From Candidatus Melainabacteria bacterium 17Bon1m (lineage in GTDB: Bacteria > Cyanobacteriota > Vampirovibrionia > Obscuribacterales > Obscuribacteraceae), in contig JAVLKG010000004.1 in assembly GCA_032128875.1 (NCBI GenBank), positions 160,001-224,000 of the forward strand: a DNA stretch of 64,000 bases, in the 5' to 3' direction. The notes under the pieces were generated by a model. It did no database searches. It was not told where the DNA came from and saw only the letters and a list, made by a program, of their open reading frames with translations. Of this stretch, positions 12,215-31,555 are shown in pieces. Within the stretch, counting starts at the first letter, position 1, and each line of letters starts with the position of its first letter. The translations under genes were made by a program, and so were the position numbers.

Positions 12215-13117
12215 CTAGTGCGTAGTTTGAAAGATTCTATCTAGCAGAATTGCAAAGAACGCAAGAATACTCACCACGCCGTTTACGTTGAAAAATGCTG
12301 CATTCACTTTGCTCAAATCATTTGCTTTGACCAGGCTGTGTTCGTAAAAGAGCATCACTCCTATCATTAAGAGTCCAGCCCAGTAGGCGATTCCAGCATT
12401 TATCTGCAATCCCAAGAGCGACATTGCCGTTACCGTCACTACATGCAGTGCAGTCGAAATATTCAGCGCCGAGGCAATTCCAAAACGTGACGGAATGCTA
12501 TGCAGCTTTTCTTTCTTGTCGATATCGAAATCCTGGCATGCATAAATGATGTCAAAACCGGCTACCCAGGTGCTTACGGCAAGCGCAAGAAGCCATGGCG
12601 CGGCACTGTCCAACATCCCTCCTGCTGCTACCCAACCTCCCAGGGCTGCACCACCAAGTGCGATGCCCAGCACGATGTGGCAAAGCCAGGTAATTCGTTT
12701 TGTATAGGAATAAAAACTCAGCCAGAAAAGAGCGATAGGAGAAAGATAGAGGCAAAGCGGCGGCAAATGTGAAGCTGCGAACAACATAATCAGGAATGAG
12801 AGCACAGCAAAGATCGCCGCGTGCATACCTTTTATTCGTCCGGCTGGTATGGCGCGGCTGCTGGTGCGCGGGTTACGTGCGTCAATTTTTGAATCTATTA
12901 ATCGATTCAGAGTCATCGCACCTGCGCGGGCGCCAGTAAATGCGAGAACTGTCCAAAAGACCACATCCCAGCCGGGCAGTTTTTGCGATGCCAAAACAAG
13001 ACCAGAGAGCGCAAAAGGTAGCGCGAACACTGTGTGCTCGAGCTTGATCATTTCCGTCCACTCTTTTGTGGTCGTCGTTAGATCTAGAGTTTTAGCGGTT
13101 TTGTTACTTACGGTCAC
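12215..13117 (-). CDS. mqnP: UbiA-family polyprenyltransferase, MqnP type (futalosine menaquinone pathway)
   Basis: MIKLEHTVFALPF, NRLIDSKIDARNPRT..R, GFDIIYACQD and AFFNVNG motifs; start taken at GTG 13117. Confidence 0.85.
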   Translation of the reverse strand: MTVSNKTAKTLDLTTTTKEWTEMIKLEHTVFALPFALSGLVLASQKLPGWDVVFWTVLAFTGARAGAMTLNRLIDSKIDARNPRTSSRAIPAGRIKGMHAAIFAVLSFLIMLFAASHLPPLCLYLSPIALFWLSFYSYTKRITWLCHIVLGIALGGAALGGWVAAGGMLDSAAPWLLALAVSTWVAGFDIIYACQDFDIDKKEKLHSIPSRFGIASALNISTALHVVTVTAMSLLGLQINAGIAYWAGLLMIGVMLFYEHSLVKANDLSKVNAAFFNVNGVVSILAFFAILLDRIFQTTH

Positions 13118-13442
13118 GGTGTAGCAAATGTTTTGGTCGCGCCTTATTTTACGCCAGCAGTTTACGACATCAACGGCTGTGCACGTTCTCTTGATTGTCA
13201 TGGGGCGCAGGGGTGGCGCTTTTGCCGCTCCAATCAGTTAAAAACCCTGTAATAGACAGCGTCTTTTGAATTGTCAGTATGTGTCGTGGCTTACAAATCG
13301 GCTTTGTGAGCCGATTATCAAGCGGGTTCTACTTGAATATTTGACATGTAGCTGAGATGATGATTTAACGGCGAAAAGCACAGTATTTCTGTTGTATGCC
13401 GCTTACATAACCCATCAATAAGCAATCGCTTTATTCGAGAGG

Positions 13443-16880: not shown

Positions 16881-16882
16881 AT

Positions 16883-18106
16883 ATGACTGTCGCAACTCCA
16901 CCAAAATCTACTGATGAAAAGGTTGCCGACATCAAGTCGGGCAAGGCGAAGAATGCTTTGCTTTCGAGCATGTTCATCTGGATAGTGGTGCTCTTTATTG
17001 CAACTGGTGAGGTTATTCGCCCTTTTTACAAACTCGTAGACACTGGGTTTGCAGAAAAGCTGAGAACCTTCTATCAGTCTGACAGGCATCCTGACGCTCT
17101 TCTGCTGGGTTCATCAGTGGCGTTTCCTTCTTCATTTGACTGTGATGCTTCAATCGGTGTTCTTACCGATAAAGATCTGAAGAGCAATTATCATGGCGCG
17201 GTGCAGCTTCAGAAATCAATTGAAGCAAGCACTGGCAAGAAATTCACTCTGGAGAACCTTGCTTGCTTCGGGGCGATGGCAAACCAAGCATGGCTGGAAG
17301 CAGAAAAGCTAGTCGAGTTTCAAAAATCTCCGAAGGTGATCATCTATGAGATGGTATCTCGTGACCTATTCGATGCCAGCATGCCTCGAAGCTTTGAATC
17401 TGAATACTATCGTGTCCTTTCTTTCCTGCATCCGAAGAGTTCCAGCAATAGTAATCCGTTTCAATCGATTGGCGATTCGATAGGGAATAGCCATGTCGTA
17501 ACTCTGATCAGGAATTTGATTTCTGATCCTGAAACGTTGAAGAATTCTGATCGGCTGCGCTTTGAGTTCGATTCTGCTCTTGGTGCAATGGTTTGTGTTT
17601 ATCAACATCGTTTTGAAATTTTAGGTCAACTCTCTAACTCAGTTTCAGATCTCTTTTCTCGTCAATCTGCTATGGAAGGAGCTCTCTCTAAAGTCGAAAT
17701 TGAGAACAAAAGAAAAAATCCATTTGCGAAAGTCTCCGCACAACGTGTAGAAACCTATGTTGTCGATTCATCACCTCAATTAGGACGTTTTGAAGATGAG
17801 AAGGTTTATTTCTTGAAGTTCGTGCAACTTTGCAAGCAGAACAAGATTCAGCTAATCGTCGTAAACATGCCTGTCACTGAGGAATACGACAAGCTTGTGC
17901 CGACTGAAATTAAGGCGCGTTGGCCCAAAGAAGCCAGGCAGTCCGTGGAAAGCGCGGGCTTTGCGTTCATCGACTTTGACGACAAGAAAGTCTTCCCAAA
18001 GAGTTGCTTCGTCGACATGGCACACCTGAACCTAACTGGTGCTTTAAAAGTGAACGAACTACTTTCCAAAGAAATTGCCAAACGCAATCTTTTAAAAGAC
18101 ATGTAA
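16883..18106 (+). CDS. SGNH-like periplasmic acyltransferase (DltD/AlgJ/DUF1574-like)
   Basis: N-terminal TM anchor, LLGSS and C-terminal DMAHLN (DxxH); starts 2 nt after the MBOAT stop. Confidence 0.8.
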   Translation: MTVATPPKSTDEKVADIKSGKAKNALLSSMFIWIVVLFIATGEVIRPFYKLVDTGFAEKLRTFYQSDRHPDALLLGSSVAFPSSFDCDASIGVLTDKDLKSNYHGAVQLQKSIEASTGKKFTLENLACFGAMANQAWLEAEKLVEFQKSPKVIIYEMVSRDLFDASMPRSFESEYYRVLSFLHPKSSSNSNPFQSIGDSIGNSHVVTLIRNLISDPETLKNSDRLRFEFDSALGAMVCVYQHRFEILGQLSNSVSDLFSRQSAMEGALSKVEIENKRKNPFAKVSAQRVETYVVDSSPQLGRFEDEKVYFLKFVQLCKQNKIQLIVVNMPVTEEYDKLVPTEIKARWPKEARQSVESAGFAFIDFDDKKVFPKSCFVDMAHLNLTGALKVNELLSKEIAKRNLLKDM

Positions 18107-18132: not shown

Positions 18133-19047
18133 TCAGTGTTTGTATGGCTTGAATTGTTTTTCGAACCATTTGGCCGTGCGAGTAAGTTGTGCTGGACCAA
18201 AGAAGAAGTGATCTCCTTCTTTTACGACCTCAAAATCGCATCGCACTCCAGCCTTGTCGAGAGCTTTCTTGAAATTCTCGCTTTGTCTGATTGAAACCGT
18301 TCGATCTTTGTCGCCGTGCATAATCAAGAAAGGAGGATCATCTATCGAAGCAAACTCCATAGGGCTGGCGAGTCTTATTTCATTTTGCTTGCTGTCTTGA
18401 GGTCCTTTGAAAAGCTTGTAGAAGACGGACTCTTGATTCCAACCCTTCTTAGGTATGTGTTCGAAATCAACAAAGCCGCACCAATCGCACACTGCCATAA
18501 CCTTGCTTGATTGCTCAGTGTTTCCTTCCACACCTTCCAGGTCTCTCTCTCCGCCGCTTGTTCCTAGAAGCGAGGCAAGGTGTCCACCTGAGGACATGCC
18601 CCAAACACCTATTTTGTCCGGATTTAGATTGTATTTGGTGGCGTTTGCGCGAAGATAGCGCACTGCTGCTTTGCAGTCATGAATCTGGGCTGGAAAAGGC
18701 GCTTCACTCGAGAGACGGTAATTGATAGCAGCGACAGCAATGCCCCTTTTAATTAGCTCTGGGCAAGGAGCTGGGCGTTTATCGCCGCCTTCCCAGGCGC
18801 CTCCGTGAATCCATACGACCACCGGCACTCTTTCTTGTGAAACATTGCCAGGCAGAAAGAGATCCAAAGTTTGGGACTTGAGTTTTGAACCAGGTATGTA
18901 CGGCAGGTCCGCGTGAAGCGTTGGCGCCGCGTTTACGCTTGCTGACTTGCTTTTAGCGCAACCACTGACAGTCGCCATCAATATCAATCCAAGTGCCGCT
19001 ATCAAAACGATAGATGGTCTTTGCTGGTAGTTTGTCACGAAACTCAT
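18133..19047 (-). CDS. Secreted/lipoprotein alpha/beta hydrolase (HSL-like esterase)
   Basis: Lipobox VSGC; HGGAW, GMSSGG and HGDKD motifs; C-terminal His. Confidence 0.88.
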   Translation of the reverse strand: MSFVTNYQQRPSIVLIAALGLILMATVSGCAKSKSASVNAAPTLHADLPYIPGSKLKSQTLDLFLPGNVSQERVPVVVWIHGGAWEGGDKRPAPCPELIKRGIAVAAINYRLSSEAPFPAQIHDCKAAVRYLRANATKYNLNPDKIGVWGMSSGGHLASLLGTSGGERDLEGVEGNTEQSSKVMAVCDWCGFVDFEHIPKKGWNQESVFYKLFKGPQDSKQNEIRLASPMEFASIDDPPFLIMHGDKDRTVSIRQSENFKKALDKAGVRCDFEVVKEGDHFFFGPAQLTRTAKWFEKQFKPYKH

Positions 19048-19380
19048 GGATGTTAATGGCGCTCGCACGAAAGCTAAGGTTGAAACCAACCAAGATTATC
19101 CTACCTTCTCTCAATTCGTGTTTAATCGCAAAATAAGCACAGCTGGTAGGTTTTCATCCAAACATATTCGAAGGATACGCCTGAGTGATATGGGCTTTGC
19201 GTAGTTCCCGAAGGCAGAATTTTCACAATATCGTAATACTTGACAGCCCTGGCGAAACGCTCAAAAGCGGCTCTGGTGAAGGCGTTTGGCAATGTCTATT
19301 TGTTTGCATAAAGTCACCAAAAAGCGGAATCAAAATGGAAACACCAGCGTCTACTTACACATACTGAAAACGGAGTCGTT

Positions 19381-19686
19381 ATGGAACTGCGTATTGATGA
19401 ATCCAATTTGAGCCGCCACAGCCGAGGAGGCGATGGCGAAGCGTTGGAATCATGGGTGCACATCATGCACATCGCTAGAGCTTTTGAAGAAGCTGGCGAT
19501 ATAAAGATGGCGGAAGAATTTTTTCGAACAGCTGTATGGATTTCAGATGAGTTTCTCAGTGCCGAAACCTCTATGAAGGGGCTTTTAATGCTGAGTTCGA
19601 CCTTGTCGAAGGACGGGCGAAGTACAGAAGCAGCACTGGCATTTATGCGCGCATTACGAATGTTCGACGAGAATATCAACAACTAG
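19381..19686 (+). CDS. Small helical (TPR-like) hypothetical protein
   Basis: GGAG SD; helical AEEFFRTA / AALAFMRAL pattern; followed by a terminator. Confidence 0.6.
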   Translation: MELRIDESNLSRHSRGGDGEALESWVHIMHIARAFEEAGDIKMAEEFFRTAVWISDEFLSAETSMKGLLMLSSTLSKDGRSTEAALAFMRALRMFDENINN

Positions 19687-19721
19687 AGATCGCGCGAGTT
19701 TAAAAAGTTTTGCAGAGGGGG

Positions 19722-19762
19722 TGGGGCTGTCCGGTTGAAAGACCGGGCAGCTCCCAGTTTTT
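19722..19762. terminator. Terminator hairpin between convergent genes
   Basis: GGGGCTGTCCGGT/ACCGGGCAGCTCC stem followed by TTTTT. Confidence 0.7.
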
Positions 19763-19783
19763 AAGCGACTAATTCTGCACACT

Positions 19784-21415
19784 CTAGGTTTGGAGTCGTT
19801 GCTGTAACTTGCCGTATTGAATTTTGGAGTTGTGGCGTGCATCGACGGGTATGGTGTCGACCCATCGAATTTCGTCGAATCGCAGCCATTTGAAAGCATC
19901 AGTCACATTTTTTTTCAGCGGTTTTGCATGATTCAAAAGTTCAATTAGTCGTTCTTTTAGAGATCCAGATTTTTTTTCTATTACTAAAATCCGTTTTGTA
20001 CCAAACTTCATGCAAGTCGCTCGACGCACCAACGGGATTTCTGAGGCTGCAACTTCGACCTGAAATGGGTAAAGCTCACCGTACTCATCGCTGATCTTCA
20101 TCGCGCATCTTCCCATGAGCCACAACCGGCCTTCTGAATCTAAGTAACCGGCGTCTCCTGTTCGATGCCAAATTTTAGAACTTTTTCGACGTTTGGTTGC
20201 GGTTGAGAATTTTGTCTCCGCATCACCTACGCCATTCAAATATGTTTCAACAACATGCTCTCCTCGAACAACAATCTCTCCTGTAACGTAAGCAGGCAGT
20301 CTCGTGAATTTCTTCAGTGTACCTGTCGCGAGCGCATTCAACTCACTCTGGTGCACAATTGCCAATTCAATTTCGTCGATGGGTTTGCCTGCAAGCAATC
20401 CGCTACCATCAAAAGTCTTCTGCAAATCTTCTGGCGTGACTTCCTTGTTGGAGATGTGCGCAATCGGCTCTGCCTCAGTGGAGCCATACACTGATATAAC
20501 TTCTGCATTCGGAAAAGCAGCTTCGATTTGCTTCAACAATGAAGGAAAGACTGGTCCGCCACCAGTCAGTATCTGTGTTAGACCATGGACATTTATGTGC
20601 ATTTCATTTAACTGATCAATCACGCGCTGCAGAAATGCTGGTGATGCAATTATGCGATTTACCCCACAAACTCGCATTTGACGAATAATTCTTTGCGCGT
20701 TGATTGTTGCTGGTTTGCGCATGTCGCCATCGGGAAGTACCGATGTGATTCCCTGTGCCAATGCCGAGAGGACAAACACTGGAAGCGTTGTAAGCTCTAC
20801 ATCCGACTTTTTACCAGGCAAAGTTTTTGCTAAAACCTTTTGTTGATTTAACAAGAAACCATGTGTGCGAACAATCGCCTTTGGATTGCTGGTAGATCCA
20901 CTTGTGAAGGTTATTAGCGCCGGATGATCATCGGCAACATCTTCGATTGGCGTTGGTAAGCCCAGTGAACCATCTGTGGTGCTATATGCCGCAGCCCGCC
21001 CAATTTGAGGAACAATCTGATCTGCAAGAACCTTGACGCGAATGTCACGGACTTCTCTAATTGCAGAGCTGAGTACGCGCAGTCTAGCTGTCGATACCAT
21101 CGCGTCCGGACGAACTAGCTGAAGTGAGTGTTTTAGCGCCTTATAGCCACCCGCGGGATCCACAATTACAACAGTCGCACCAATTCTGAACAATGCTAGC
21201 AAAAGCACGTATGTTTCGATGCGCATTGAAACAGCCAGCAGCACTCGGTCATTTTTTTCGATACCGGAATCGAGTAATTTCTCCGCCGCAAGTTCTGTCA
21301 GTTTTTGCAGAGTCCTATATGTCAAAGCGCGGTCGACGTTGTGCCGAAAGTCTCTCAGCGCGATTCGCTCGGGCTGGCAGACTGCATGTTCATCGAGTAT
21401 TCTGACAAGGTTCAT
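19784..21415 (-). CDS. AMP-dependent synthetase/ligase, OleC-like
   Basis: FTSGSTSNPK P-loop, YGSTEAEP, HRTGDAG and PVDARHNSKI motifs. Confidence 0.9.
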   Translation of the reverse strand: MNLVRILDEHAVCQPERIALRDFRHNVDRALTYRTLQKLTELAAEKLLDSGIEKNDRVLLAVSMRIETYVLLLALFRIGATVVIVDPAGGYKALKHSLQLVRPDAMVSTARLRVLSSAIREVRDIRVKVLADQIVPQIGRAAAYSTTDGSLGLPTPIEDVADDHPALITFTSGSTSNPKAIVRTHGFLLNQQKVLAKTLPGKKSDVELTTLPVFVLSALAQGITSVLPDGDMRKPATINAQRIIRQMRVCGVNRIIASPAFLQRVIDQLNEMHINVHGLTQILTGGGPVFPSLLKQIEAAFPNAEVISVYGSTEAEPIAHISNKEVTPEDLQKTFDGSGLLAGKPIDEIELAIVHQSELNALATGTLKKFTRLPAYVTGEIVVRGEHVVETYLNGVGDAETKFSTATKRRKSSKIWHRTGDAGYLDSEGRLWLMGRCAMKISDEYGELYPFQVEVAASEIPLVRRATCMKFGTKRILVIEKKSGSLKERLIELLNHAKPLKKNVTDAFKWLRFDEIRWVDTIPVDARHNSKIQYGKLQQRLQT

Positions 21416-21460
21416 TGTTCGTTCAAAGTCGTTTCTAGAGTTGTATTTACTAACAGTTGG

Positions 21461-22534
21461 CTACAGAGCTTTGCCGTAAAGTGAGTAAGTTCGAATTGCT
21501 TCTCCGTACATCGAGCTGATTCCGCTGGCTGCATTGCCCATTGCATAGAGTGCGTGGATTGCCTCGCGGTAGCCTTTCTCGTAAGCTCTTGAATGCACCT
21601 CTTGATACATCAAGCGCCCAAGTCCTTTAAGTTTTTCGTCCTGATTGCGGGCGATTGTTTTCATCACCAGTCGTGGTTGAAAAGCCGCTGAATTTTGATC
21701 TGGATAAGCGAAGAGATAGCCGACTATCTTTCCTGCCTTTTCTGCAACCACCATAAGTTCTGGGTCGGCCAGCGATGTCAGCTTCGTTTGCTCTTTCATA
21801 AATGACGCTCTGTCGATTGGCGAAAATAGAAAGTTGTTTTGCATTGCTTCCATCGTGACTCGAAAGATGCCTTCTAGGTCTGAATCGATGTCGTTTGCAT
21901 TGAGTGTTCTGAGTTTGACACCTTGACGTGACAATCTTGCTTTGATTGTTTTGCTGTCAGGGTCTTTTGAATCAAGGTTATGGTTGATTGAAGAACCATA
22001 AGTTTTTACAACCTTGAATCCAGCATCTAGAAAATGTTTGTTCCAACTAAGTGGATTGACCGGCTCGAGTGAAAATATGCGTTCGCCACAGCTCTCACTA
22101 ATCAGCCGGTATCGGCGCCAGGTGCTGCCGTCGATAGGTCCAATGACTGCGTTGCAGCCCCTCTTCTTCAATTCGAATTCAGCCAGCTCAAGCAGTTCTA
22201 TACCGGCTTTGAGTGATGTGGCGGCATAATGACCTATGAATCCAAGTTTTACCTCAGAGCCTATGACGCGCAAGTCCAATTGGTCTGCTGAAGGTGGAAA
22301 GAGCAATTTGGGCTCAGTCCAGATTGAGCAGCGCGCCGTTAGTTTGCCTTCGTACATTGCGAACAAATAGAGTGAAGGCGAACCATTGGTCTGAGTCGGT
22401 TCAACACACTCATGCGGGAAAGATAGAGCAAACTTGGTCGATATCTCCGCCAACTCGGCTGACAAGCTTTCCGGCTTGACTGCAAAAGTGTAATTTAAGC
22501 AGCCAGAATGCGGCGCAGACAGAGCTTCTGTCAT
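21461..22534 (-). CDS. GNAT-fold acyltransferase-like protein
   Basis: Tandem GNAT-like fold with GPIDGSTWRRYRL and the acyl-CoA motif KGLGR; SD AAAGGAG. Confidence 0.75.
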   Translation of the reverse strand: MTEALSAPHSGCLNYTFAVKPESLSAELAEISTKFALSFPHECVEPTQTNGSPSLYLFAMYEGKLTARCSIWTEPKLLFPPSADQLDLRVIGSEVKLGFIGHYAATSLKAGIELLELAEFELKKRGCNAVIGPIDGSTWRRYRLISESCGERIFSLEPVNPLSWNKHFLDAGFKVVKTYGSSINHNLDSKDPDSKTIKARLSRQGVKLRTLNANDIDSDLEGIFRVTMEAMQNNFLFSPIDRASFMKEQTKLTSLADPELMVVAEKAGKIVGYLFAYPDQNSAAFQPRLVMKTIARNQDEKLKGLGRLMYQEVHSRAYEKGYREAIHALYAMGNAASGISSMYGEAIRTYSLYGKAL

Positions 22535-22649
22535 CGCGAATCTCCTTTATTTTTCAGACCCACCAACTTAATAGTAGGTTTTGGGTGGACTATTGTTCCC
22601 AGTATTCACACAGTTTCATGAGTGTTTACCTGGACTTAAACTGCCGTTT

Positions 22650-23990
22650 TTAATGGATGAAAGCCGCCGGTACTGAGCCGATAAGGGACCCCAGTATGGC
22701 AAACAGAGCCTGCTTGAACCACCGGGTTTTCCCGGTGAGAGACCTGGTCGGATCTTGCTGGGAAAGATAGAAAGAAAGAACCGGCAGGGCTATACATAGT
22801 GGTGCTGCAACGCTCAGGAGTATTGCCTGGCGCGTGAATCCGGCGAGGATGACAAAAGGGATGAAAAGAAGCAACCAGCTTTTGAGAACGCCGCTTGTCA
22901 ACACCAGGATTCTTGAAGAGTTGAATCCGCGAGAATGAACGTGAGCCACCATGATTATTGCGGCATGCACAGCGAAAGCAAGCGTATAAGGAAAGATGAA
23001 TTCCCTGCCGAAGGACAGTTGCGAACATATCCAGATGAGCCCGGTGCTCGCGACGCTAAGCACAGCATACATTGAGTGCCTGTTTTCAATCGACTGAAAA
23101 CGCATGGGCATACACCAGCGGTAGCAAGAGAAAACAATGAGTGGCATCGTCATCCATTGCAATCCGCCGACCACGAAGCTGCCGTATGCAAATAGTGCCA
23201 CGCCGAGGATAGCGCTTCCGGTGAGTGTTGTCTTGTGGCGCCATGCGATGGTGAAGGATAGGATTATCGCCAACACAATGAGCCTGATGGCTAATGTTTC
23301 GGTCGGCACATCGACGTGTGTGCGCAAGACCAAAAGTGCACCCAGAGGAATTGCTAGATTGTCAAAACCGCGCCAGGCAATTCCTTCGAAGAGCATAGCC
23401 AGAATGCCCATAATGAGCGAGATAAACAGTGTTTTGTCGGCGGGCGTCGTAGTGAAAAGGTCGAGAGGGACGAGAGTGCCCAGAAGCGCGAAAGTGAAAA
23501 ACGCCAGCGAACCCTCCGTGCTCTTCGCGCCATCAACTGTCGCGTATTTGTGCGTTCCATACTTAATTCCGACCATTGCGGAAACAGCGTCGGCGAGTGT
23601 AAGAATCAGTACTGGAATGCAAAAAAAGAGTGGTTGTTCGAATGTTAGTGTGAAAAGAATGCCGATTGCCAGCGGAAAGCAGATGTGCCCGTAAGACTGC
23701 CTACCATCTGCTTTGAGAACGCAGCCCCATGAGTTGAGCATCTTAAGTTTGCCGACAAAGGATAAAGTCACAGCCGTGGCGATTGATAAAACCGCCACTG
23801 GCCATGACTCTTCGAATAAATACGGAAAGCTGAGCGTGACACATCCCATAAGCACATGCACTGCCTTTCGAATCAATTCCGGTTCGCAACCAGTCTTCTT
23901 CTTGATATAGGACAGCACGCTCATTGCTGCCGTGAGAACTCCCATCACCAGGCTCATGCCGAGAATTGGATTAGGAAATGCTCCTAACAC
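22650..23990 (-). CDS. Polytopic CTP-dependent phytol/dolichol/DAG kinase-like protein
   Basis: RKAVH, LAD..SAMVG, KSTEGS and DNLAIP motifs, plus extra C-terminal TM helices. Confidence 0.8.
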   Translation of the reverse strand: MLGAFPNPILGMSLVMGVLTAAMSVLSYIKKKTGCEPELIRKAVHVLMGCVTLSFPYLFEESWPVAVLSIATAVTLSFVGKLKMLNSWGCVLKADGRQSYGHICFPLAIGILFTLTFEQPLFFCIPVLILTLADAVSAMVGIKYGTHKYATVDGAKSTEGSLAFFTFALLGTLVPLDLFTTTPADKTLFISLIMGILAMLFEGIAWRGFDNLAIPLGALLVLRTHVDVPTETLAIRLIVLAIILSFTIAWRHKTTLTGSAILGVALFAYGSFVVGGLQWMTMPLIVFSCYRWCMPMRFQSIENRHSMYAVLSVASTGLIWICSQLSFGREFIFPYTLAFAVHAAIIMVAHVHSRGFNSSRILVLTSGVLKSWLLLFIPFVILAGFTRQAILLSVAAPLCIALPVLSFYLSQQDPTRSLTGKTRWFKQALFAILGSLIGSVPAAFIH

Positions 23991-25129
23991 GTTATTTCCT
24001 CGATCACCAGCCTGCTATAAAAGAAGGCTTTATCTTCCTTGTGCAGTTGTTCTGCCAATTCTGTATGTGATTTGAGAACAGGTGCCATTCTCTCAGGTCT
24101 ACTGCGTGGTGCAAGCATGTTCCAGTAAACAAGCTTGGCACCGGTGCGCCCCGCGAGTACGAGTTCGCTGAGCAACTTGTGGTAGTTGTCCATCGACATG
24201 TACTCGAAAATGTCGCTCAGGTTGAACTTGTCGACTGAGCCCGGAGAAAGTTCTTCCAACACTGATTCAATACTTCCGACGCGCAATTCTAGCTTGTCGA
24301 TGTTCGCCTTGATCTTTTCGTAGTTGTCTTTGCGCAAATAGTGCGGCAGAGCCGACACATAGTTGCCCTTGAGAATCCACTGCATGTAGGGGTTTTCAGC
24401 CGGGTCAAGAACTGTCAAAGCGTATTGCGTTCTATCCAGGATTGCCTGAGCAACGTCGGTTTGAACATATTGGAAAAACGCCGGATCGCGGCCGAGCAAG
24501 CCCATTACTTTGCGAGAAAAGAACATGCGAAACAGTGTGCGCCATTTCGGTGTGTTCCAAACTTCATCGAAGAAGCGTTTGCGATCTTCGCTGTTGCGTT
24601 TGATAAGCAGGTCATCGCAAGTTTCCTTGCTATGTACAAATGGCAAAGCCGCGTTGCGAAAAATCTCGAAGTACTTTTCGAACTTGCCAGCGTGCCCTAT
24701 GCCTCTTGAAAGATCGAGCTTTTGCACATCGAAGAAATTTCTTGTCTCTTGTGATAAGTGCGGACGCAGTTTTGCATACAGTGCAAGTCTATTGCCAGGC
24801 TTTACGCCAATGAGGCAAAGTAAGTCTTCATATGAGAGAAACTTGATTGCGCGGGCTTTGAGTTCTAGGCAAGCAATTTGCTGGCGGTTGAAATCTACAG
24901 CGATCACTTTTGATGGATCTTGAGACAAAAGCGACAAGCTATTGTCTCCAGCAGAAGCTACCGAAATGCAGACATCGCCTGCTTTCACATCCAGTGCTTT
25001 CAGCAAGATGTCGGCATCTTCCCAGCACTGTGCGTAGCGGATGCGTGAAAAATCAGCATGGTTTTCGATTTCGGAAAAACGAAGTTCCGGTCTGTTTTTC
25101 AAAGTAAGAGTGGAGTTAAGTTTTTTCAT
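23984..25129 (-). CDS. DUF3419 / BtaA-like SAM-dependent 3-amino-3-carboxypropyltransferase
   Basis: YAQCWEDAD, ASAGDN, AVDFN..Q...LELK, GKFEKYF and LSDIFEYM motifs. Confidence 0.88.
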   Translation of the reverse strand: MKKLNSTLTLKNRPELRFSEIENHADFSRIRYAQCWEDADILLKALDVKAGDVCISVASAGDNSLSLLSQDPSKVIAVDFNRQQIACLELKARAIKFLSYEDLLCLIGVKPGNRLALYAKLRPHLSQETRNFFDVQKLDLSRGIGHAGKFEKYFEIFRNAALPFVHSKETCDDLLIKRNSEDRKRFFDEVWNTPKWRTLFRMFFSRKVMGLLGRDPAFFQYVQTDVAQAILDRTQYALTVLDPAENPYMQWILKGNYVSALPHYLRKDNYEKIKANIDKLELRVGSIESVLEELSPGSVDKFNLSDIFEYMSMDNYHKLLSELVLAGRTGAKLVYWNMLAPRSRPERMAPVLKSHTELAEQLHKEDKAFFYSRLVIEEITC

Positions 25130-25140
25130 CGACGCCCCTC

Positions 25141-27786
25141 CTAGCTCGCCTCCCTGCGGAGACCTGTGGAATCAATGAGTTTCACGACGTTGTCGCTAAG
25201 ATCATGTTCCGAATTTTGGGAAGCACTTTCGGCTGTGCTTGCAGCTGGAATTTCTGATGACAGCAGTTGTGCGTTTTCAGTTTTGCTCGAATCTGAAAGC
25301 TTTGTGATCGTCCCTGTTTTGCCGTCAAATTCGATGAGGTCGCCGTCCGTCAGCCAGTTCATCACTCCTGCCGCTGACACTACTGCAGGAATGCCGAGCT
25401 CACGAGAAACAATTGCGGTGTGGGAAAGTAAGCTGCCATATTCGACGATGATGCCTTTCGCTTGGGTGAAAAGAACAATCCAACCTGGGTCTGTTCTTTC
25501 GGCTATGAGGATCTCGTCTTCCAGCGGTTTTGCATTTAAAGGATCGCGAACCACGCGTACACGACCGCGTACAGTGCCTGGTGAGCAGCCGAGACCTGTC
25601 ATAGTTTCAGACTTACTATCAGATAGGTCAGGTGATTTAATTTGGTCGAAGCATGGCGTCGCCCCTACGGTAGCTTCTATAACGGCGCTTCTGGTGACGA
25701 TGCGGTTTGGCGGCGGAAGCTCGTTCTGAAATTGGAGAAATTCCTTCCTGCGAAGTTCAGCAAGCGCAGCTATGTTCGCCGTCGTTCCTTTACCTTCTAT
25801 AAAGCTGAGAACTTCTTCTACTTCTAAGTAGAAAATGTCGTTTTTGTCATTTAGTATGCCTTGTTGTTCGAGCTGTTTGCCAAACTGGAGAAAGATTCTT
25901 CTGACTAAACCAAACAAACGTGTTCGCTCGAATCTCAAATTCTCTCGCCAACGAATACGCTCGACAGCCTGGTTGGCAACGAAGTTGAAAACCACCCGTT
26001 TGAAAAAAGGCAGTTTGGCAATTTGAGATTTTGAATAGGTTGGCGACGGTTCCTGTAAGTTTGCGGTTCGTACTTTTCTTGGAGCTGATGCCAGAGCAGC
26101 AATGTTTCTCAAAAGCGGTAAAGGATTATCGTTAAGAGTTTGACTTTCTAGTTTTAACTCGTTAAGACAACGGTCGCCGAACCTATCAAGATAGTTTTTG
26201 AAAGCTATTTCAAATCTCTCGTTGTCCTTCATGAGGTTCTCAATTTCCTGCATGTTTCCATTTGAGAGAGCAAGTTGAAGTTCTAGATCGTCACGAGCGA
26301 TGTCTGCCATCTTTGTGATCAGTTTTGCAGGCTCTGCGCTGATAATTCCACCGGCGTTGACAAGCAACTCGTGCTGCGAGAAAGATTGTGGCATCCAATT
26401 TTGGCTGAGCGAATTCAGCATTCCGAAGAAGATCATGGCAAAGAAGTCGTTGACTAGTGGCGCATCCCACGATGAGAGAAGTTTCGCTTCTAAGCTGCGA
26501 TAGAGCTTCGCAAGCTGATCTGTGTTCAGCTTGGATAAGTCTTTTGGTACTTCAGATAATGTGGTGTTGAAGTGGTTTTGAAAATTAGAAATCTCTTTTT
26601 GCAGCTTTGCAAATCGAACTGTCATCGCACACAGTGAGGTTGCGAAGTTTAGATACGCTCTGCCTGTAGAAACCTTGTTATCTTCGATGACTTGCTCAAT
26701 TACTTCTGCGGGCAGCTCTTCTTTGACACCCATCATCTGTTCCATGAAAGGTCTATTTACTTGAAACCCAGGAAGCAGTGCGAGCAATTTGTACCAGTTG
26801 ACCAGGTTGTAATAGATACGACCGCGGATGTAGCCGAGCATGCGCGGGAAAATCTGACTATTTGCCTCAATGCGCTCATTCGATACGCCCATCAAACGAC
26901 AGAAGTGGATATAAACATGTTCGTATGCTTTCGCTGCGAAGCTGAATGTGAGCGGCGTAGTTACTCCTTGATAGCTTTCTGAGATGTTGCTGTTGTCCCA
27001 GATTCTCAGGTTTCCCTCAAGCTTCTCGGGAAGAGTTGTGATTGGGCGAGCTTGCAAAATGAAAAGTTGATTGCCGTCATGTGCCCATTCGATGTCCTGT
27101 GGGCAACCAAAAAGCAATTCGATCTTTCTTGCGATGTGCGCAATCTCTAATGCTATGGCATCACTAATCTCAGACTCGTTGGCAAAACCTGCTTTTCTTT
27201 TGATTGTTTGACCATTGATGACGTACAACAGTTCGCCGCTAACTTCGCCCGAGACGAGTCTATCTGCTAGACCGCCAACTGCGTTGATCACAACGGTATT
27301 TCTGTCTCCACTGATTGGATCAGCGCTAAATGCCACGCCTGCAACTTTTGCGTCAACCATCTTTTGAACGATTATCGCGGGGCCGTCGGATTTCCTTTCG
27401 ATGCCCATGCCATTGCAGTATGCTTGCAAACGATCCGTTGTTCCGGACAGCCAAACTGATCGTGCTGCGGTGATGACCCACTCGCTGCTGACATTCAAGA
27501 AAGTATCTAGCTGTCCTGCGAATGATGTTTTTGCACCGTCCTCGTCAATTGCCGATGAGCGAACTGCCAGCAATGTAGTTCCAACCTTGAACTTTCTGTG
27601 AGCTATTTTGAGCTCTTCTTCCAAAAGTGGATCTTGCCAGGTTGTGTCGCTGCGAAAGGCACCGGGAACAATCGTCACAAATGCTGGTACTGCAAATCCA
27701 GCTGCTTTGAGGCGTGCGAGGTTTGCAGCTTTATTGCCGGTGAGCTCCGGTTTGTGACGTTCGTATTCGAGAATGATGTTTTTCAT
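25141..27786 (-). CDS. PEP-synthase-like small-molecule phosphotransferase (RPH/PigC architecture)
   Basis: N-terminal ATP-grasp (GNKA, VRSSA..ED, SFAGQ, QDIEWA, LQARPIT), large central domain, C-terminal His-swivel (TDPGW, LSHTAIVSRELGIP). Confidence 0.92.
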   Translation of the reverse strand: MKNIILEYERHKPELTGNKAANLARLKAAGFAVPAFVTIVPGAFRSDTTWQDPLLEEELKIAHRKFKVGTTLLAVRSSAIDEDGAKTSFAGQLDTFLNVSSEWVITAARSVWLSGTTDRLQAYCNGMGIERKSDGPAIIVQKMVDAKVAGVAFSADPISGDRNTVVINAVGGLADRLVSGEVSGELLYVINGQTIKRKAGFANESEISDAIALEIAHIARKIELLFGCPQDIEWAHDGNQLFILQARPITTLPEKLEGNLRIWDNSNISESYQGVTTPLTFSFAAKAYEHVYIHFCRLMGVSNERIEANSQIFPRMLGYIRGRIYYNLVNWYKLLALLPGFQVNRPFMEQMMGVKEELPAEVIEQVIEDNKVSTGRAYLNFATSLCAMTVRFAKLQKEISNFQNHFNTTLSEVPKDLSKLNTDQLAKLYRSLEAKLLSSWDAPLVNDFFAMIFFGMLNSLSQNWMPQSFSQHELLVNAGGIISAEPAKLITKMADIARDDLELQLALSNGNMQEIENLMKDNERFEIAFKNYLDRFGDRCLNELKLESQTLNDNPLPLLRNIAALASAPRKVRTANLQEPSPTYSKSQIAKLPFFKRVVFNFVANQAVERIRWRENLRFERTRLFGLVRRIFLQFGKQLEQQGILNDKNDIFYLEVEEVLSFIEGKGTTANIAALAELRRKEFLQFQNELPPPNRIVTRSAVIEATVGATPCFDQIKSPDLSDSKSETMTGLGCSPGTVRGRVRVVRDPLNAKPLEDEILIAERTDPGWIVLFTQAKGIIVEYGSLLSHTAIVSRELGIPAVVSAAGVMNWLTDGDLIEFDGKTGTITKLSDSSKTENAQLLSSEIPAASTAESASQNSEHDLSDNVVKLIDSTGLRREAS

Positions 27787-27804
27787 TTTGCTGCCTTAGT
27801 GTAT

Positions 27805-28722
27805 TTAAAAGGTTTTTCCAAACATGGAAAACATTGATGGCACAGTCCCCAGTGCGACGTATGTGACTAACGTCCAGACTCCGGAGAAACTCTCGAACGG
27901 CTTACCGCTCGAAGAATGTTTTACAAACTTGATAGCAATTGCAACGGCGCCAGTTGCAAGAAATAAGACGAGCGCGATGATCGGCACTGCAAACCCGAGT
28001 TTTGCAGCAGTAGCTATCGCCAAACAGCCAGATGCCGCGATTGCCGCAAGCCATGCAAAGACAGCCGGTCTGCTTCCCCAGGCTGAAGTGTAGCTTGTCA
28101 CTCCGTCTTTTTCTTCATCAGAAGATTTGATCTTGCGCCCGATTTCGATGATCACTCCATTGCAAAAACTTACAGCGAGAAACAGCCACAATCCCGATGG
28201 TGGCAATGCGGTGCCTTTCATCCAATCGAAAGCGGTAACGAAAATGTCTACGAAAAGCAAAATCAGCATGTGCGTCCATAAGTAGGTGAATGGACGTTGC
28301 TTCAGCCAGTCGCCAACGAAAAACTCCACGCTCATTAGCGCGAAGTACAGCCATGTGAGGGCTAGAGGGAGAAGCAGGCTTTGCTGGTAGGAAAACGCGA
28401 GGGACAATTGAATTGCGCCACCGAGTGCGCCAAGCATCGCCAGCTCTTTCAGTTTGACCAAGCCGCGGGGAACCGGCCGCTCCGGCTGGTACCGGCAGTC
28501 TTCTTCGTGGTCTTTAAACTCATCGGCAACACGAAGCTGGAAGAAAAGGATTAGGGAGCAGAGATACGCTGCCAGAAAGGCTTGAATGTCCGGCATTCCT
28601 GCTTCGCCGCGCATCATTCGAGAAACACAGAGCGCCGAATAGGAGAATGCTGCCACTATGGCGCCGTATTGGGAGAGCGGGAAGCGCTCTCTTTGATAGA
28701 CGAACCAACGGTTTAGTTTCAT
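27805..28722 (-). CDS. UbiA-family prenyltransferase-like membrane protein
   Basis: RVADEFKDHEED....PERPVPRG Asp-rich motif; multiple TM helices. Confidence 0.85.
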   Translation of the reverse strand: MKLNRWFVYQRERFPLSQYGAIVAAFSYSALCVSRMMRGEAGMPDIQAFLAAYLCSLILFFQLRVADEFKDHEEDCRYQPERPVPRGLVKLKELAMLGALGGAIQLSLAFSYQQSLLLPLALTWLYFALMSVEFFVGDWLKQRPFTYLWTHMLILLFVDIFVTAFDWMKGTALPPSGLWLFLAVSFCNGVIIEIGRKIKSSDEEKDGVTSYTSAWGSRPAVFAWLAAIAASGCLAIATAAKLGFAVPIIALVLFLATGAVAIAIKFVKHSSSGKPFESFSGVWTLVTYVALGTVPSMFSMFGKTF

Positions 28723-28732
28723 TTTTCTGCGC

Positions 28733-28853
28733 CCTAGAGCTGAGTGTGCGGAAGCTAGCGGTCGATCCGCTAGGACTCCACCGCTGTGCCTACAGACTCA
28801 TTCTAGGTCGGCATGTTTCCGAAAGTCGGCTGTATGCGATCAGTTTGCCGACT
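28733..28853 (-). promoter_or_regulatory. Structured 5' leader of the UbiA-dikinase-BtaA operon (candidate cis-regulatory RNA)
   Basis: Nested complementary segments CCTAGA/TCTAGG, TGAGT/ACTCA and CTAGCGG/CCGCTAG, plus alternative GTCGGC/GCCGAC pairings. Confidence 0.45.
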
Positions 28854-28876
28854 GTTTTGCTCCTCTGTCTGACACA

Positions 28877-30106
28877 TCAGAAGGGATACACATATCCTTT
28901 TTCGTATCCGTGATAGGACAAATTCGGATCTCGAGTCAGAAAGTTGATTGCCTGGCTTTGCTTTGGGTTCGATTCATTTTTTATGGACAGCGTTCGAATA
29001 TATTCGCCTGTGGCTGTTCTCAACTTACCTGATGGGGTAGAGATTGCTGCGCTGTAGCCTTCCTTCTTAAGAGCCGAATTCAAAGTTTCTGTAAATGTCT
29101 TCGAAAGACCGACGTATTCATCTTGCAATGCACTCTTTATAAAAGTGTCTACCAATTCGCCACTCTCTTTCTTATTCAATGCAACTGATTTTGCAATCAA
29201 AGAACTTACACACCCTTCCATCTCTTTGCGAAGGTCGGCTTTTGATATGGTCGAAACATCTCCAGTCTGCATAGCCAATTTGCCAAAATTGAATTGCAGA
29301 AAGTATTTTGTGTACTTGTGTTCTTGTGTGCTGCTTTGATATTTCGTCATATCGCTCAGTGATATCTCACCCTTCTTCAAAAGAAGTGGATCATTCATGA
29401 GGTGTTGCAATGCTCTTAGCTCAGACATGCTTTTCTGTAGGGAAGGATCACATGATTTATATGGGTTGAGTCCTTCGATAATAGTGCTGCCACCCTCAAC
29501 GGATTTACCTGCGAACAATGAATGCTGCGCATGACTGGTTTTAACAGAGATAAATCTGTCTACTACTACTGAATTCCCCTCTCCTAATGTGAAAACCGTC
29601 GCTGGGATTTGTTCCATCAGGTAATTGAAGGCTGACGCTTTATCGATTCTGACTTGCTTACCGCTGCCTGCAAGAGCTGTATTGAATTGGTTTTGCAAAT
29701 CACTTCTTGAACTCGAAGCGTCAATCAATCGCGTGATTCCGCTGCGTATTTCAAAATTGAGCGGCGCGTTGCTGGGGGCAGATTCTATTGCCGCCGTCAG
29801 ATTAACCAAAATTGCGCGATCTATGTCAGGTTTTGAAATCGAACCAGCGCCTCCCGAAACTTGCCCGAAGTTTTTAAGCAAGTACAATTCTGGACTTCCA
29901 GGGCGCTGAGAGTTTGTGTCTTGCATTCCACTTCTTAGTTCGTCTCGAGTGAGTCGCGAATCACCACTCTTATCAATCCTTTTGAAATCGCTCTTCGCCT
30001 CAAACAATGCATCCAATACCATGTTAGAGCGTGCCTGCGACTCTTCGTCATCTACTTCCGGCGACGTCTTATCAGCACGTGCTTCTTCGATTGCATCTTT
30101 TGCCAT
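28877..30106 (-). CDS. Hypothetical protein with EF-hand-like motifs and internal duplication
   Basis: DFKRIDKSGDSRLTRDEL EF-hand; repeated NFG.....IS..D modules. Confidence 0.7.
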   Translation of the reverse strand: MAKDAIEEARADKTSPEVDDEESQARSNMVLDALFEAKSDFKRIDKSGDSRLTRDELRSGMQDTNSQRPGSPELYLLKNFGQVSGGAGSISKPDIDRAILVNLTAAIESAPSNAPLNFEIRSGITRLIDASSSRSDLQNQFNTALAGSGKQVRIDKASAFNYLMEQIPATVFTLGEGNSVVVDRFISVKTSHAQHSLFAGKSVEGGSTIIEGLNPYKSCDPSLQKSMSELRALQHLMNDPLLLKKGEISLSDMTKYQSSTQEHKYTKYFLQFNFGKLAMQTGDVSTISKADLRKEMEGCVSSLIAKSVALNKKESGELVDTFIKSALQDEYVGLSKTFTETLNSALKKEGYSAAISTPSGKLRTATGEYIRTLSIKNESNPKQSQAINFLTRDPNLSYHGYEKGYVYPF

Positions 30107-30307
30107 TTCAAAACCTCAAATAAATTCGGCGTTAGCAGACCCTACTTTCTATCGGTTTGCAAAGCTGCAGCAGCTCGGGCTTTGGGGTGCGCCTTGCTCT
30201 GTTGTGGCTCATACTAGCCGTCCAATGTTGCCGCAAAGTTGCCAAATCGTTGTTGATTTGTTGCCGGTTGCTTTTGCGACGCGTCCGATTATCCGCTGGC
30301 TTCGATG

Positions 30308-31555
30308 CTACCGCCTAATGAACCGGATCACTCTCTGGTCATTGTCGACGGTGTACTCGTATCCTTCATATAGGTCTTGTCCGACTAGCGGACGCCCTAG
30401 AGAGCCGTAGTTTGCGGTCACATCGCAGTTGTATTTCTCGATTGGCCCGAGCTTCACTCGATTGACTTTGAATCGCAATCCGCTGCCGCTGCCCGTTACT
30501 CCAGAGTGGGTGACAGCTTCACCATCTTCGGTCGAGAGGTTGAGCGCTTTGACGTCATTCATTCCCATGCTGATGGCCGAAGCGGAGTTGCCTGTGTCGA
30601 AGTACATTGGGTAGGACCGCCCATTTACTTCAACATTGACGACCATCTTTGGACCTTCCCATGAGAAAGGTACGGCATAGCCTCCGCGTGCCGCGCCCGA
30701 TCCGCCGGAGCCTTTCTTCTTAAGCCTGATGGCGCCGGCATTTCTGTCAATTGAATATTCGAAGTCTTGGATGAAAGATTGCCCGAGAAGCGGCGGCGCT
30801 GCATTGTATGCGAGCACTTTGATGGGGAAGTTTTGCCGCAGTATGGTCCCGACTTTGACGTCTGCCGGCATCATCCAGTAGGACTGAAGGCTGGCATTGG
30901 ACGAGCCACCGGACTGACCAGTTGGTTCTCCTTCCGGTAGTCTGATGCCCATCTCTTGTAGCTGATTTTTACCGACAACAATTCCTGTTGCGCCAGTGTC
31001 GAAGGTCATTTTGAGTGGGCGATTATTGATGTATACATCAACTTTCAACTGCGCATCCCCCTTTTCGAAGAATATTGTTGCTTGTTCGGGAAGGTTTGAG
31101 CTGGAAGAGCTCCTTACGGCAGAGGCGCTGCTGCCGCCAGAGTATGTTCTCACCGAACTCTGGGCGTTTGTGCCGGAACTTGCCGTGGCTGGTTTTGGAT
31201 ACCACTGCGCGTCGGTGGTTCCGGGATTGAGGCGCATGCCGCCGACTACCTGTGCGGAGCGCGTTGCCGCAGCGGTGCCGGGAAACTTCTTAAGGATAAG
31301 CTGGTAATTGACGAGGGCGTCGGCTGTCTTCCCTTGATAGTGTTGGCTCACCGCCAAGTAGTACAAAGCGTTCGCGTTCGTGGGCTCGTTGGTGACGGCT
31401 TTCTTGAGCAATTTGGAAGCTTCATCAAAACGTTTTTCACCAAGAAGCTTCACGCCTTGCTTGAAGTCTTCGCCAGCCATGGCGGGCGACCAGGAAAGTC
31501 CCAGAAAGGAGACCAACACAAGGATAACCAAGAGTTTCGTCTGTTGCTGTTGCAT
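30308..31555 (-). CDS. Secreted TPR + tandem retropepsin-like aspartyl protease
   Basis: Signal peptide, TPR, FDTGA...LLGQ and FDTGN...LVGQ. Confidence 0.87.
   Translation of the reverse strand: MQQQQTKLLVILVLVSFLGLSWSPAMAGEDFKQGVKLLGEKRFDEASKLLKKAVTNEPTNANALYYLAVSQHYQGKTADALVNYQLILKKFPGTAAATRSAQVVGGMRLNPGTTDAQWYPKPATASSGTNAQSSVRTYSGGSSASAVRSSSSSNLPEQATIFFEKGDAQLKVDVYINNRPLKMTFDTGATGIVVGKNQLQEMGIRLPEGEPTGQSGGSSNASLQSYWMMPADVKVGTILRQNFPIKVLAYNAAPPLLGQSFIQDFEYSIDRNAGAIRLKKKGSGGSGAARGGYAVPFSWEGPKMVVNVEVNGRSYPMYFDTGNSASAISMGMNDVKALNLSTEDGEAVTHSGVTGSGSGLRFKVNRVKLGPIEKYNCDVTANYGSLGRPLVGQDLYEGYEYTVDNDQRVIRFIRR

Follow-up and report, generated by a model that had tools for sequence, protein, structure and literature searches.

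A six-gene cluster of a Melainabacteria genome that may build an uncharacterised lipid with an amino-acid head group

The window analysed here is a stretch of 64,000 nucleotides (nt) from Candidatus Melainabacteria bacterium 17Bon1m (assembly GCA_032128875.1, contig JAVLKG010000004.1, positions 160,001 to 224,000). It contains six co-oriented open reading frames (ORFs) on the minus strand at 19784-28722, with successive spacings of 18, 11, -7, 115 and 45 nt. We tentatively read these six genes as one operon. Its product would be a membrane amphiphile not yet characterised, for which a phosphorus-poor lipid with an amino-acid head group is the likeliest candidate. The genome of the window (G000) contained 7.55 Mb in 35 contigs and was 93% complete. 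The genes, in the order of transcription and with protein lengths in amino acids (aa), are as follows.

27805-28722, minus strand: UbiA-superfamily membrane prenyl or alkyl transferase (305 aa; PF01040, 49.7 bits)
25141-27786, minus strand: Rph/PigC-type phosphohistidine "dikinase" (881 aa; PPDK_N, 162 bits, and PEP-utilizers, 76.7 bits)
23984-25129, minus strand: DUF3419/BtaA-family enzyme dependent on S-adenosylmethionine (SAM) (381 aa; PF11899, 240 bits, cut-off 28.2)
22650-23990, minus strand: polytopic membrane protein with a SEC59/DGK1/VTE5-type N-domain and a C-terminal domain of six transmembrane helices (446 aa; GTG start)
21461-22534, minus strand: tandem-GNAT N-acyltransferase (357 aa; Acetyltransf_1, 28.7 bits, cut-off 20.7, residues 252-328)
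19784-21415, minus strand: ANL-superfamily acyl-AMP/acyl-CoA ligase (543 aa; AMP-binding, 171.7 bits)

The ORF coordinates and spacings agree exactly with those of a preliminary description made from the DNA letters. That description had also reported that BtaB and OleA/B/D are absent nearby. Pfam agrees, with no methyltransferase or OleA/B/D-type gene within 19784-28722 or among the adjacent genes.

Conservation of the gene set

One genome per prokaryotic species was scanned with an alignment of 14 DUF3419 proteins (A1). The scan gave 600 pattern matches, 582 of them encoding a relative. The locus counts given here are from the best 80 of the 582 loci, searched by tblastn with the window proteins. 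Many of these loci are cut by contig ends, and 45 of the 80 have at least 5.5 kb upstream and at least 4.3 kb downstream (the flank-complete loci).

Across all 80 loci, the dikinase was present in 74 and the membrane protein in 70, followed by UbiA (64), the GNAT (61) and the ligase (59). The flank-complete loci contained the dikinase in all 45 cases, UbiA in 42, the GNAT and the ligase in 41 each and the membrane protein in 39. All six genes were present in 36 of the 45, for the most part in one order. The six-gene arrangement is far beyond chance.

The commonest gene order (22 of 80 loci) includes a seventh gene, a homologue of HMG-CoA reductase (HMGR), at the front. It reads HMGR-like gene, UbiA, dikinase, DUF3419, membrane kinase, GNAT, ligase. 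The GNAT and ligase genes were shifted as a single block to the front of the cluster in 8 of the 80 loci. The gene orders show three modules, namely reductase-UbiA-dikinase, DUF3419-kinase and GNAT-ligase.

Carriers were found in Cyanobacteria, Melainabacteria, Verrucomicrobiota, Planctomycetota, Acidobacteriota, Gemmatimonadota, Chloroflexota and Armatimonadota. Further carriers belonged to the Rhodothermales, the Gamma- and Deltaproteobacteria and one Acidimicrobiia-type actinobacterium. A search of a plasmid collection retrieved the cluster of the cultured Roseinatronobacter sp. S2, which lies on a 137-kb plasmid. RefSeq names its products as a UbiA family prenyltransferase, a PEP/pyruvate-binding domain protein, a DUF3419 family protein, an AMP-binding protein and two hypothetical proteins. 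A second cultured carrier, Brevibacillus laterosporus B9, encodes the full set and a cytochrome P450 on a 1.38-Mb "plasmid" record.

The cluster is split in two genomes. The dikinase lies 150 kb away from the DUF3419-kinase-GNAT-ligase genes in G029. In G017 the dikinase and DUF3419 genes (0.41 Mb) are separate from the kinase gene (3.64 Mb). The preliminary description would have fallen if the six genes did not co-occur elsewhere. They co-occur in 36 of the 45 flank-complete loci, in many phyla, and are still found in the same genome where the cluster is split, and therefore this objection fails.

Two natural fusions join neighbouring products. One (P0250, 787 aa) combines the membrane kinase and the tandem GNAT, and the other (P0271) combines DUF3419 and the membrane kinase. 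Long kinase-domain fusions (782-2230 aa) were searched for as well; none scored, which is weak evidence. In-frame read-through between neighbouring genes occurred in 8 GC-rich loci; it may be an artefact of ORF calling and was not used. Accessory genes in the flank-complete loci encoded a P450 (7 of 45) and an MMPL-family protein (3 of 45).

Four loci, gammaproteobacterial or unclassified (L016, L035, L052 and L058), have an MMPL-family transporter gene within the cluster or next to it, and 9 loci have a cytochrome P450 gene as its companion.

Enzymes encoded by the cluster

UbiA. The protein exceeds the PF01040 cut-off of 34.2 bits. It encodes a DxxxDxxxD motif at residues 67-75 and DEEKD (DxxxD) at 202-206. 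Both Asp-rich motifs, with D67, D71 and D75 in the first, are invariant across 22 cluster homologues. Every equivalog cut-off of NCBIfam was missed; the best model was NF010118 (77.3 bits, cut-off 443). The equivalog for digeranylgeranylglyceryl phosphate (DGGGP) synthase, NF009522, gave 15.6 bits against a cut-off of 353. Among solved structures, a profile of the 22 homologues finds only the ether-forming DGGGP synthase 6m31 (E 3.1e-5). The window also contains a second, canonical UbiA-family gene (188 bits) at 12215-13201 on the minus strand. It lies 6.5 kb from the cluster and is unrelated to the divergent UbiA of the cluster.

Dikinase. The protein contains a PPDK_N ATP-grasp domain at residues 56-257, a long central domain and a C-terminal swivel-His PEP-utilizers domain at 756-825. 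The His motif GSLLSHTAIVSRELGIPAV starts at residue 784 and is intact. PPDK_N and PEP-utilizers were the only domains found, with no phosphoenolpyruvate (PEP)/pyruvate TIM-barrel domain, as in Rph/PigC-type enzymes. The best solved relatives are the rifampin phosphotransferases 5fbs and 5hv1 (about 181 bits). NF004881 gave 666 bits against a cut-off of 883. The equivalog cut-offs were also missed for Rph (252.6 against 999), PigC (280.8 against 1300) and RedH (291 against 1350).

DUF3419 protein. It shares 48-55% identity with cluster-linked homologues of other phyla. Identity was 24% to a DUF3419 protein of Rhizobium, encoded by a gene that overlaps one for a class I methyltransferase (the btaA-btaB arrangement), and 25% to the second DUF3419 copy of its own genome. 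The nearest named relatives are proteins from Melainabacteria and Obscuribacteraceae metagenome-assembled genomes. Many homologues carry the JGI label [quoted passage not shown]. The protein has the DUF3419 domain of BtaA (240 bits against 28.2) and lacks the operon partner, the N-methyltransferase BtaB. By sequence it belongs to a subfamily distinct from the btaAB-type BtaA, and it is predicted to transfer the 3-amino-3-carboxypropyl group.

The second DUF3419 gene of the genome (L002; G000:C13:102865-103902, 136 bits) lies two small genes downstream of a Methyltransf_11 gene. These two genes are possibly the real BtaA/BtaB-like pair of the genome.

Membrane protein. The 446-aa protein had no Pfam or NCBIfam match even at E 10, including CTP_transf_1 (PF01148). 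An AlphaFold2 (AF2) model from the A2 alignment of 37 homologues had a pLDDT of 92.5. Foldseek retrieved nothing for the model at E<=0.001. The only match at high probability was the CDP-diacylglycerol synthase 4q2e (0.95, E 0.14). An independent fold search also placed 4q2e first (Z 8.4, root-mean-square deviation 5.0, 162 aligned, model residues 47-228). It also retrieved the CDP-archaeol synthase CarS 5guf (Z 6.3, 19% identity, residues 115-228). These Z values are modest by themselves for a helical protein.

The A2 profile was then compared with 301 genomes of the window's phylum, and 132 matched at E<=1e-20. The full-length protein was present in only three of them (G000, G017 and G029). 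Nine matches were forms of about 373 aa from genomes of small size in the same class; among them, L099 reaches the CTP_transf_1 cut-off (26 against 24 bits). About 120 ORFs of about 235 aa match profile positions ~5-220 (E 1e-20 to 1e-38). One such short cyanobacterial protein is named "diacylglycerol/polyprenol kinase family", "SEC59/DGK1/VTE5 family", "phytol kinase" or "dolichol kinase", depending on the source. The N-domain spans about residues 30-228. Aligned by hhalign with five cyanobacterial proteins of about 235 aa, it gave 99.9% probability (E 5.2e-35, 210 columns). On this profile evidence it is a SEC59/DGK1/VTE5-type lipid-alcohol kinase domain, for which cytidine triphosphate (CTP) as donor and kinase chemistry are predicted. 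The same family includes the cytidylyltransferases CdsA and CarS.

The N-domain stands alone in 5 of the 37 homologues. The C-terminal half with its six helices had no hhalign match to the kinases of about 235 aa or to DUF92/VTE6, and Atlas returned only "hypothetical protein" for it. The family is large, with 1,434 representatives at 50% identity (E<=1e-30). A complex prediction of the membrane kinase with DUF3419 scored 0.00, which counts neither for nor against binding.

We also considered whether the C-terminal half is a DUF92/VTE6 phytyl-phosphate kinase, which would make the protein a VTE5-VTE6 fusion. The leads were weak: DUF92 in 2 of the 37 homologues at E 0.002, residues 263-378 of P0223, and an Atlas hit at rank 6 (0.83). 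This candidate was rejected after hhalign against five DUF92 proteins gave 0.4% probability.

A separate relative of the cluster kinase, common and seemingly unnamed, occurs in the Bacteroidota phylum. There, 87 of 251 genomes contain an ORF of about 500-590 aa that matches kinase-profile positions ~5-360 (E 1e-26 to 1e-46; for example, L115-L117). Such relatives made up most of the matches of that scan, and they are not HMGR fusions.

GNAT and ligase. The N-terminal half of the GNAT is also conserved (31 homologues). The AF2 model had a pLDDT of 89, and its top Foldseek matches were tandem GNATs, namely 7q3a (E 2.6e-14, template-modelling score 0.59-0.62), 5kgh, MshD 1ozp and 2wpw. Of these, 5kgh is a glucosamine N-acetyltransferase. 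Judged by the model, the protein is a tandem GNAT. Weak sequence matches in the PDB were to phosphinothricin and methionine-sulfoximine N-acetyltransferases, and the arsinothricin-type NCBIfam model ArsN1b gave 25.4 bits. Enzymes of these three types acetylate the alpha-amino group of 2-amino-4-substituted butanoates. By analogy, this is the shape of a 3-amino-3-carboxypropyl adduct and would fit N-acylation of the head group. The closest NCBIfam model of the ligase was NF006754, "fatty acid CoA ligase family" (373.9 bits, under the cut-off of 478). The OleC models gave 236.8 and 206.8 bits against cut-offs of 900 and 850.

The six family assignments of the preliminary description stand, by Pfam for five proteins and by profile and hhalign for the N-half of the membrane protein. 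Its "phytol-kinase-like" label applies to that N-terminal half, which the A2 profile matches and hhalign support, and not to the unmatched C-terminal half. Its "OleC-like ligase" has the right family, with OleC second to the fatty-acid CoA ligase model. Its proposal of acylation by the ligase/GNAT pair, taken as N-acylation of a homoserine-type head group, would suit both the weak sequence affinities of the GNAT and the kinase-GNAT and DUF3419-kinase fusions.

Seventh gene in other lineages

Clustering of all ORFs in the 80 loci retrieved a gene of about 430 aa directly upstream of UbiA in 37 loci. It encodes a member of the HMG-CoA-reductase family (PF00368, 391 bits), and its best solved relative is the archaeal class I HMGR 6hr7 (299 bits). 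The gene was present in 32 of the 45 flank-complete loci and together with all six others in 29 of the 45.

According to the accessible text of PMC11948995, FcrA is an HMGR-related fatty acyl-CoA reductase that retains the catalytic Glu/Lys/Asp/His residues. The same text gives its changes as human Ser684 to Glu, Leu862 to a bulky residue and a conserved Lys to a small residue. We mapped these sites by a HMMER alignment of a cluster copy to human HMGR 1dq8, followed by an alignment of 36 cluster copies. The Ser684 position is Glu in all 36 copies. The Leu862 position is Phe in 35 copies and Tyr in one. All 36 retain the catalytic E/K/D/H residues.

The cluster copy was the sole PF00368 match in all four carrier genomes checked, and the C-domain of HMG-CoA synthase had no match in any of the four. 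The seventh gene is probably an acyl-CoA reductase because of its FcrA-type residues, its being the sole PF00368 copy and the absence of a match to HMG-CoA synthase.

Proposed pathway and alternatives

The gene families, the UbiA and dikinase motifs, the clustering, the fusions and the FcrA-type residues at two of the three diagnostic sites are observed directly, and the pathway proposed here is built on them. In the first step, the VTE5/SEC59/DGK1-type kinase domain would act within the membrane and phosphorylate a long-chain or isoprenoid lipid alcohol. In most other lineages, the cluster ligase and the FcrA-like acyl-CoA reductase would produce this alcohol from a fatty acid. The alcohol must come from elsewhere in the Melainabacteria-type genome, the reductase being absent. 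The Rph/PigC-type phospho-His enzyme may then add a second phosphoryl group, or it may activate another oxygen. With the diphosphate so formed, UbiA would alkylate or prenylate the hydroxyl group of an acceptor. The BtaA-family enzyme would move the 3-amino-3-carboxypropyl group of SAM to a free lipid hydroxyl and give an ether-linked homoserine head. In the last step, the tandem GNAT would acylate the new alpha-amino group with an acyl thioester or adenylate from the adjacent ligase. Our tentative reading covers this course as far as a lipid alcohol that is phosphorylated, transferred by UbiA, given the SAM-derived head and N-acylated. We put it a little short of probable.

One variant names the chain and the product. 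Fatty (or 2-enoyl or isoprenoid) acids would be reduced to alcohols and converted to alkyl diphosphates. UbiA would transfer the alkyl group, and an ether-linked, N-acylated homoserine would cap the product. This would be a phosphorus-free anionic ether lipid, a new class in more than 10 bacterial phyla. The variant in this full form is unlikely. If it were true, this UbiA would be the first of its family with a non-isoprenoid alkyl donor.

Several points weigh against the proposed pathway. We infer its substrates, the order of its steps and its product throughout. Its weakest links are the non-allylic UbiA donor, the monoester-to-diphosphate role of the dikinase and the source of the alcohol in the window's genome. 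UbiA enzymes use allylic prenyl diphosphates or phosphoribosyl pyrophosphate, and to our knowledge a saturated alkyl diphosphate is an unprecedented donor. We likewise know of no dikinase of the Rph/PigC family whose net reaction yields a diphosphate from a phosphate monoester. The top fold matches of the membrane protein are cytidylyltransferases, and it is the closer sequence relation to VTE5-type proteins, and only this, that argues for kinase chemistry. The GNAT donor could be acetyl-CoA or a long acyl group. The third FcrA-diagnostic site is Arg/Lys or Met in the cluster copies, depending on a one-residue gap. The window's genome had no PF00368 match at 93% completeness, so the alcohol would be supplied otherwise here and the Melainabacteria-type cluster runs without the seventh gene. 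A search of that genome with PF07993 (fatty acyl reductase-type) gave only generic matches like short-chain dehydrogenases/reductases, and no alternative alcohol source was found.

The cluster may instead make a diffusible or secreted secondary metabolite, such as an alkylated or prenylated signal or antibiotic of the N-acyl amino-acid type, with the dikinase as a PigC/RedH-like ATP-dependent condensing enzyme. We regard this as unlikely, if worth keeping in view. The plasmid location in two cultured carriers (the 137-kb Roseinatronobacter plasmid and the 1.38-Mb Brevibacillus laterosporus record) and the accessory P450 (7 of 45) and MMPL exporter (3 of 45) genes fit such a product, and to that extent they also speak against a membrane lipid. 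The distribution looks patchy and transfer-prone, with the full-length membrane kinase in 3 of 301 phylum genomes. The dikinase scores 281-291 bits on the prodigiosin ligases PigC and RedH, but their cut-offs are far off. Against it, UbiA and the VTE5/SEC59/DGK1-type protein, two of the six, are integral membrane enzymes from families that handle lipids, the known BtaA substrate is a membrane lipid, and the conserved unit has no nonribosomal peptide synthetase, polyketide synthase or regulator. Salvage of isoprenoid alcohols with prenylation seems to us quite unlikely. Polyprenol, phytol or geranylgeraniol would be re-phosphorylated and attached by UbiA to an acceptor that later bears the homoserine or N-acyl head, and the ligase would serve the GNAT only. 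Plants re-phosphorylate phytol by VTE5 and VTE6, and the closest named relatives of the kinase domain are phytol, dolichol and polyprenol kinases. The usual allylic donors of UbiA enzymes also suit salvage. The FcrA-like gene is missing in the window's lineage and in 13 of the 45 flank-complete loci, so a supply of fatty alcohol is not obligatory. Yet this reductase lies directly upstream of UbiA in 32 of the 45 loci and points to an acyl-derived alcohol in most lineages. The C-domain of the membrane protein is not DUF92/VTE6-like by hhalign, so the plant-type second kinase is absent.

Two simpler explanations would leave most of the cluster aside or change its chemistry. An ordinary betaine-lipid locus, for diacylglyceryl homoserine (DGHS) or its trimethylated form (DGTS), would have DUF3419 acting as BtaA on diacylglycerol beside unrelated neighbours. 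The DUF3419 score of 240 bits, the JGI naming of many homologues and the action of DGK1-type kinases, by family name, on diacylglycerol all suit it. It is nonetheless very improbable: the cluster has no BtaB-type methyltransferase, the identity to the Rhizobium protein with the overlapping class I methyltransferase gene is 24%, and the genome's second DUF3419 gene is the one two genes downstream of a Methyltransf_11 gene. The five other genes also travel with this DUF3419 subfamily in 36 of the 45 loci. The seven-gene form would be a mevalonate-linked isoprenoid pathway if the HMGR homologue were a true HMG-CoA reductase, as its PF00368 score and its relation to 6hr7 would allow. That is hardly credible given FcrA-type substitutions in 36 of 36 copies, the single PF00368 copy without an HMG-CoA synthase match in 4 of 4 carrier genomes, the absence of GHMP kinases from the conserved unit and a cluster in the window that works without the HMGR homologue. 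An operon for a membrane lipid with an amino-acid head group is the reading that we tentatively retain.

If this reading is true, a widespread bacterial lipid or amphiphile has been missed so far. Among its carriers are Acidobacteriota, Verrucomicrobiota, Planctomycetota, Gemmatimonadota, Chloroflexota, Cyanobacteriota, Bacillota and Pseudomonadota. A large DUF3419 subfamily currently annotated as BtaA would gain a function, as would more than 1,400 clusters (at 50% identity) of membrane proteins without a Pfam family and an orphan branch of Rph/PigC-type enzymes. The reading would also give many bacterial FcrA-type "HMG-CoA reductases" a role beyond wax-ester synthesis, a point left open in the accessible text of PMC11948995. 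The unit is compact (9-10 kb) and cultured carriers exist (Brevibacillus laterosporus and Roseinatronobacter sp. S2), which makes it directly testable.

Boundaries of the unit and other genes of the window

The genes that flank the cluster encode an EF-hand-like protein of 409 aa, an Asp-protease/TPR protein, orf122 and a BD-FAE esterase. They recur in only 1-2 of the 80 loci, and therefore the conserved unit is the six genes at 19784-28722. One further feature lies at its downstream end.

19723-19754, no strand assigned: 14-bp G+C-rich hairpin, about 30 nt past the ligase stop codon

This is the strongest terminator-like site in 18900-30400. It has no immediate T-run after the stem when read on the minus strand. 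It probably marks the 3' end of the transcript. A promoter scan gave 7 sites against 11.2 expected and was uninformative. In three RNA-labelled runs, the whole stretch lay inside flat contigs of 11-34 kb that span genes of both strands, as in the DNA run of the same sample. The RNA-labelled runs that cover the operon behave like DNA and are no demonstration of transcription.

The 409-aa ORF (28877-30106, minus strand) sits where other lineages have the FcrA-like gene. It has a weak EF-hand match (19.3 bits) and recurs only in the closest relative (L003, 58%). A 23-nt sequence occurs twice in the window, at 25647-25669 inside the dikinase gene and at 30223-30245. Contig ends elsewhere in the same sample match it too, in all four runs compared, and it is possibly a short dispersed repeat.

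At 15423-18106 on the plus strand, the gene for an MBOAT membrane O-acyltransferase (89 bits) directly precedes one for a DltD/DUF1574-like protein. This AlgI/DltB-DltD-type O-acylation pair lies a short way past the downstream end of the cluster and does not share its conservation. A bacterial protein at 56707-58389 (plus strand) contains both domains of lipase maturation factor (LMF1, 178 bits; LMF1_C, 185 bits), a mainly eukaryotic family. An ABC-2 permease fused to an Rce1-like CPBP intramembrane protease domain is encoded at 60472-62502 (plus strand). It adjoins another ABC-2 permease and an ABC ATPase (58472-60479).

Comparison with known systems

Read as an amino-lipid or head-group pathway, the cluster combines known enzyme families in an undescribed way. 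Literature searches turned up no description of this gene combination; the supplements of PMC11948995 might list FcrA neighbourhoods. The accessible part of the Lipocone preprint treats UbiA and HMGR neighbourhoods other than those of the cluster.

The cluster shares with BtaA/BtaB, the DGTS system, a DUF3419/BtaA SAM enzyme and the presumed transfer of a 3-amino-3-carboxypropyl group to a lipid hydroxyl. It differs in having no BtaB and in its company of UbiA, dikinase, VTE5-type kinase, tandem GNAT and ligase. Its amino group is predicted to be acylated, not trimethylated. The N-domain of the membrane protein is a full-length homologue of VTE5, SEC59 and DGK1, and re-phosphorylation of a lipid alcohol to supply a UbiA-type transferase would follow the same logic as in VTE5/VTE6 salvage. 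Unlike these enzymes, the cluster protein has an extra C-terminal domain of six helices and no DUF92/VTE6 partner. The second phosphoryl donor, if there is any, would be the Rph-type dikinase. That dikinase has the three-part architecture of Rph and PigC/RedH (ATP-grasp, substrate domain and C-terminal swivel His) and the intact His motif. Its central substrate domain is specific to the cluster family, and the equivalog cut-offs are widely missed.

Archaeal ether-lipid synthesis offers two likenesses, a UbiA with DGGGP synthase as its only solved relative and a membrane enzyme of the CdsA/CarS fold. The cluster lacks geranylgeranylglyceryl phosphate synthase, glycerol-1-phosphate dehydrogenase and a CDP-alcohol transferase, and its CdsA-fold protein is nearer to kinases than to CarS by sequence. 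Lipid N-acylation of the MbtK/FadD33 and OlsB types pairs an acyl-activating ligase with an N-acyltransferase that acts on the amino group of a lipid or lipopeptide precursor. The cluster has a tandem GNAT and no acyl carrier protein gene, and the resemblance is functional only.

The seventh gene of other phyla shares with FcrA, as described in the accessible text of PMC11948995, the change of Ser684 to Glu, the bulky residue at Leu862 and the catalytic residues. The cluster copies are about 420-440 aa long and, set against the N. pharaonis and P. breve FcrA of that text, seem to lack the N-terminal alkyl-carrier extension (PMC11948995). Their setting is not wax-ester synthesis, and the gene is missing from the window's genome. 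The cluster borrows steps from BtaA/BtaB, VTE5, Rph/PigC, FcrA and the archaeal UbiA/CarS route, and it is a member of none of these systems.

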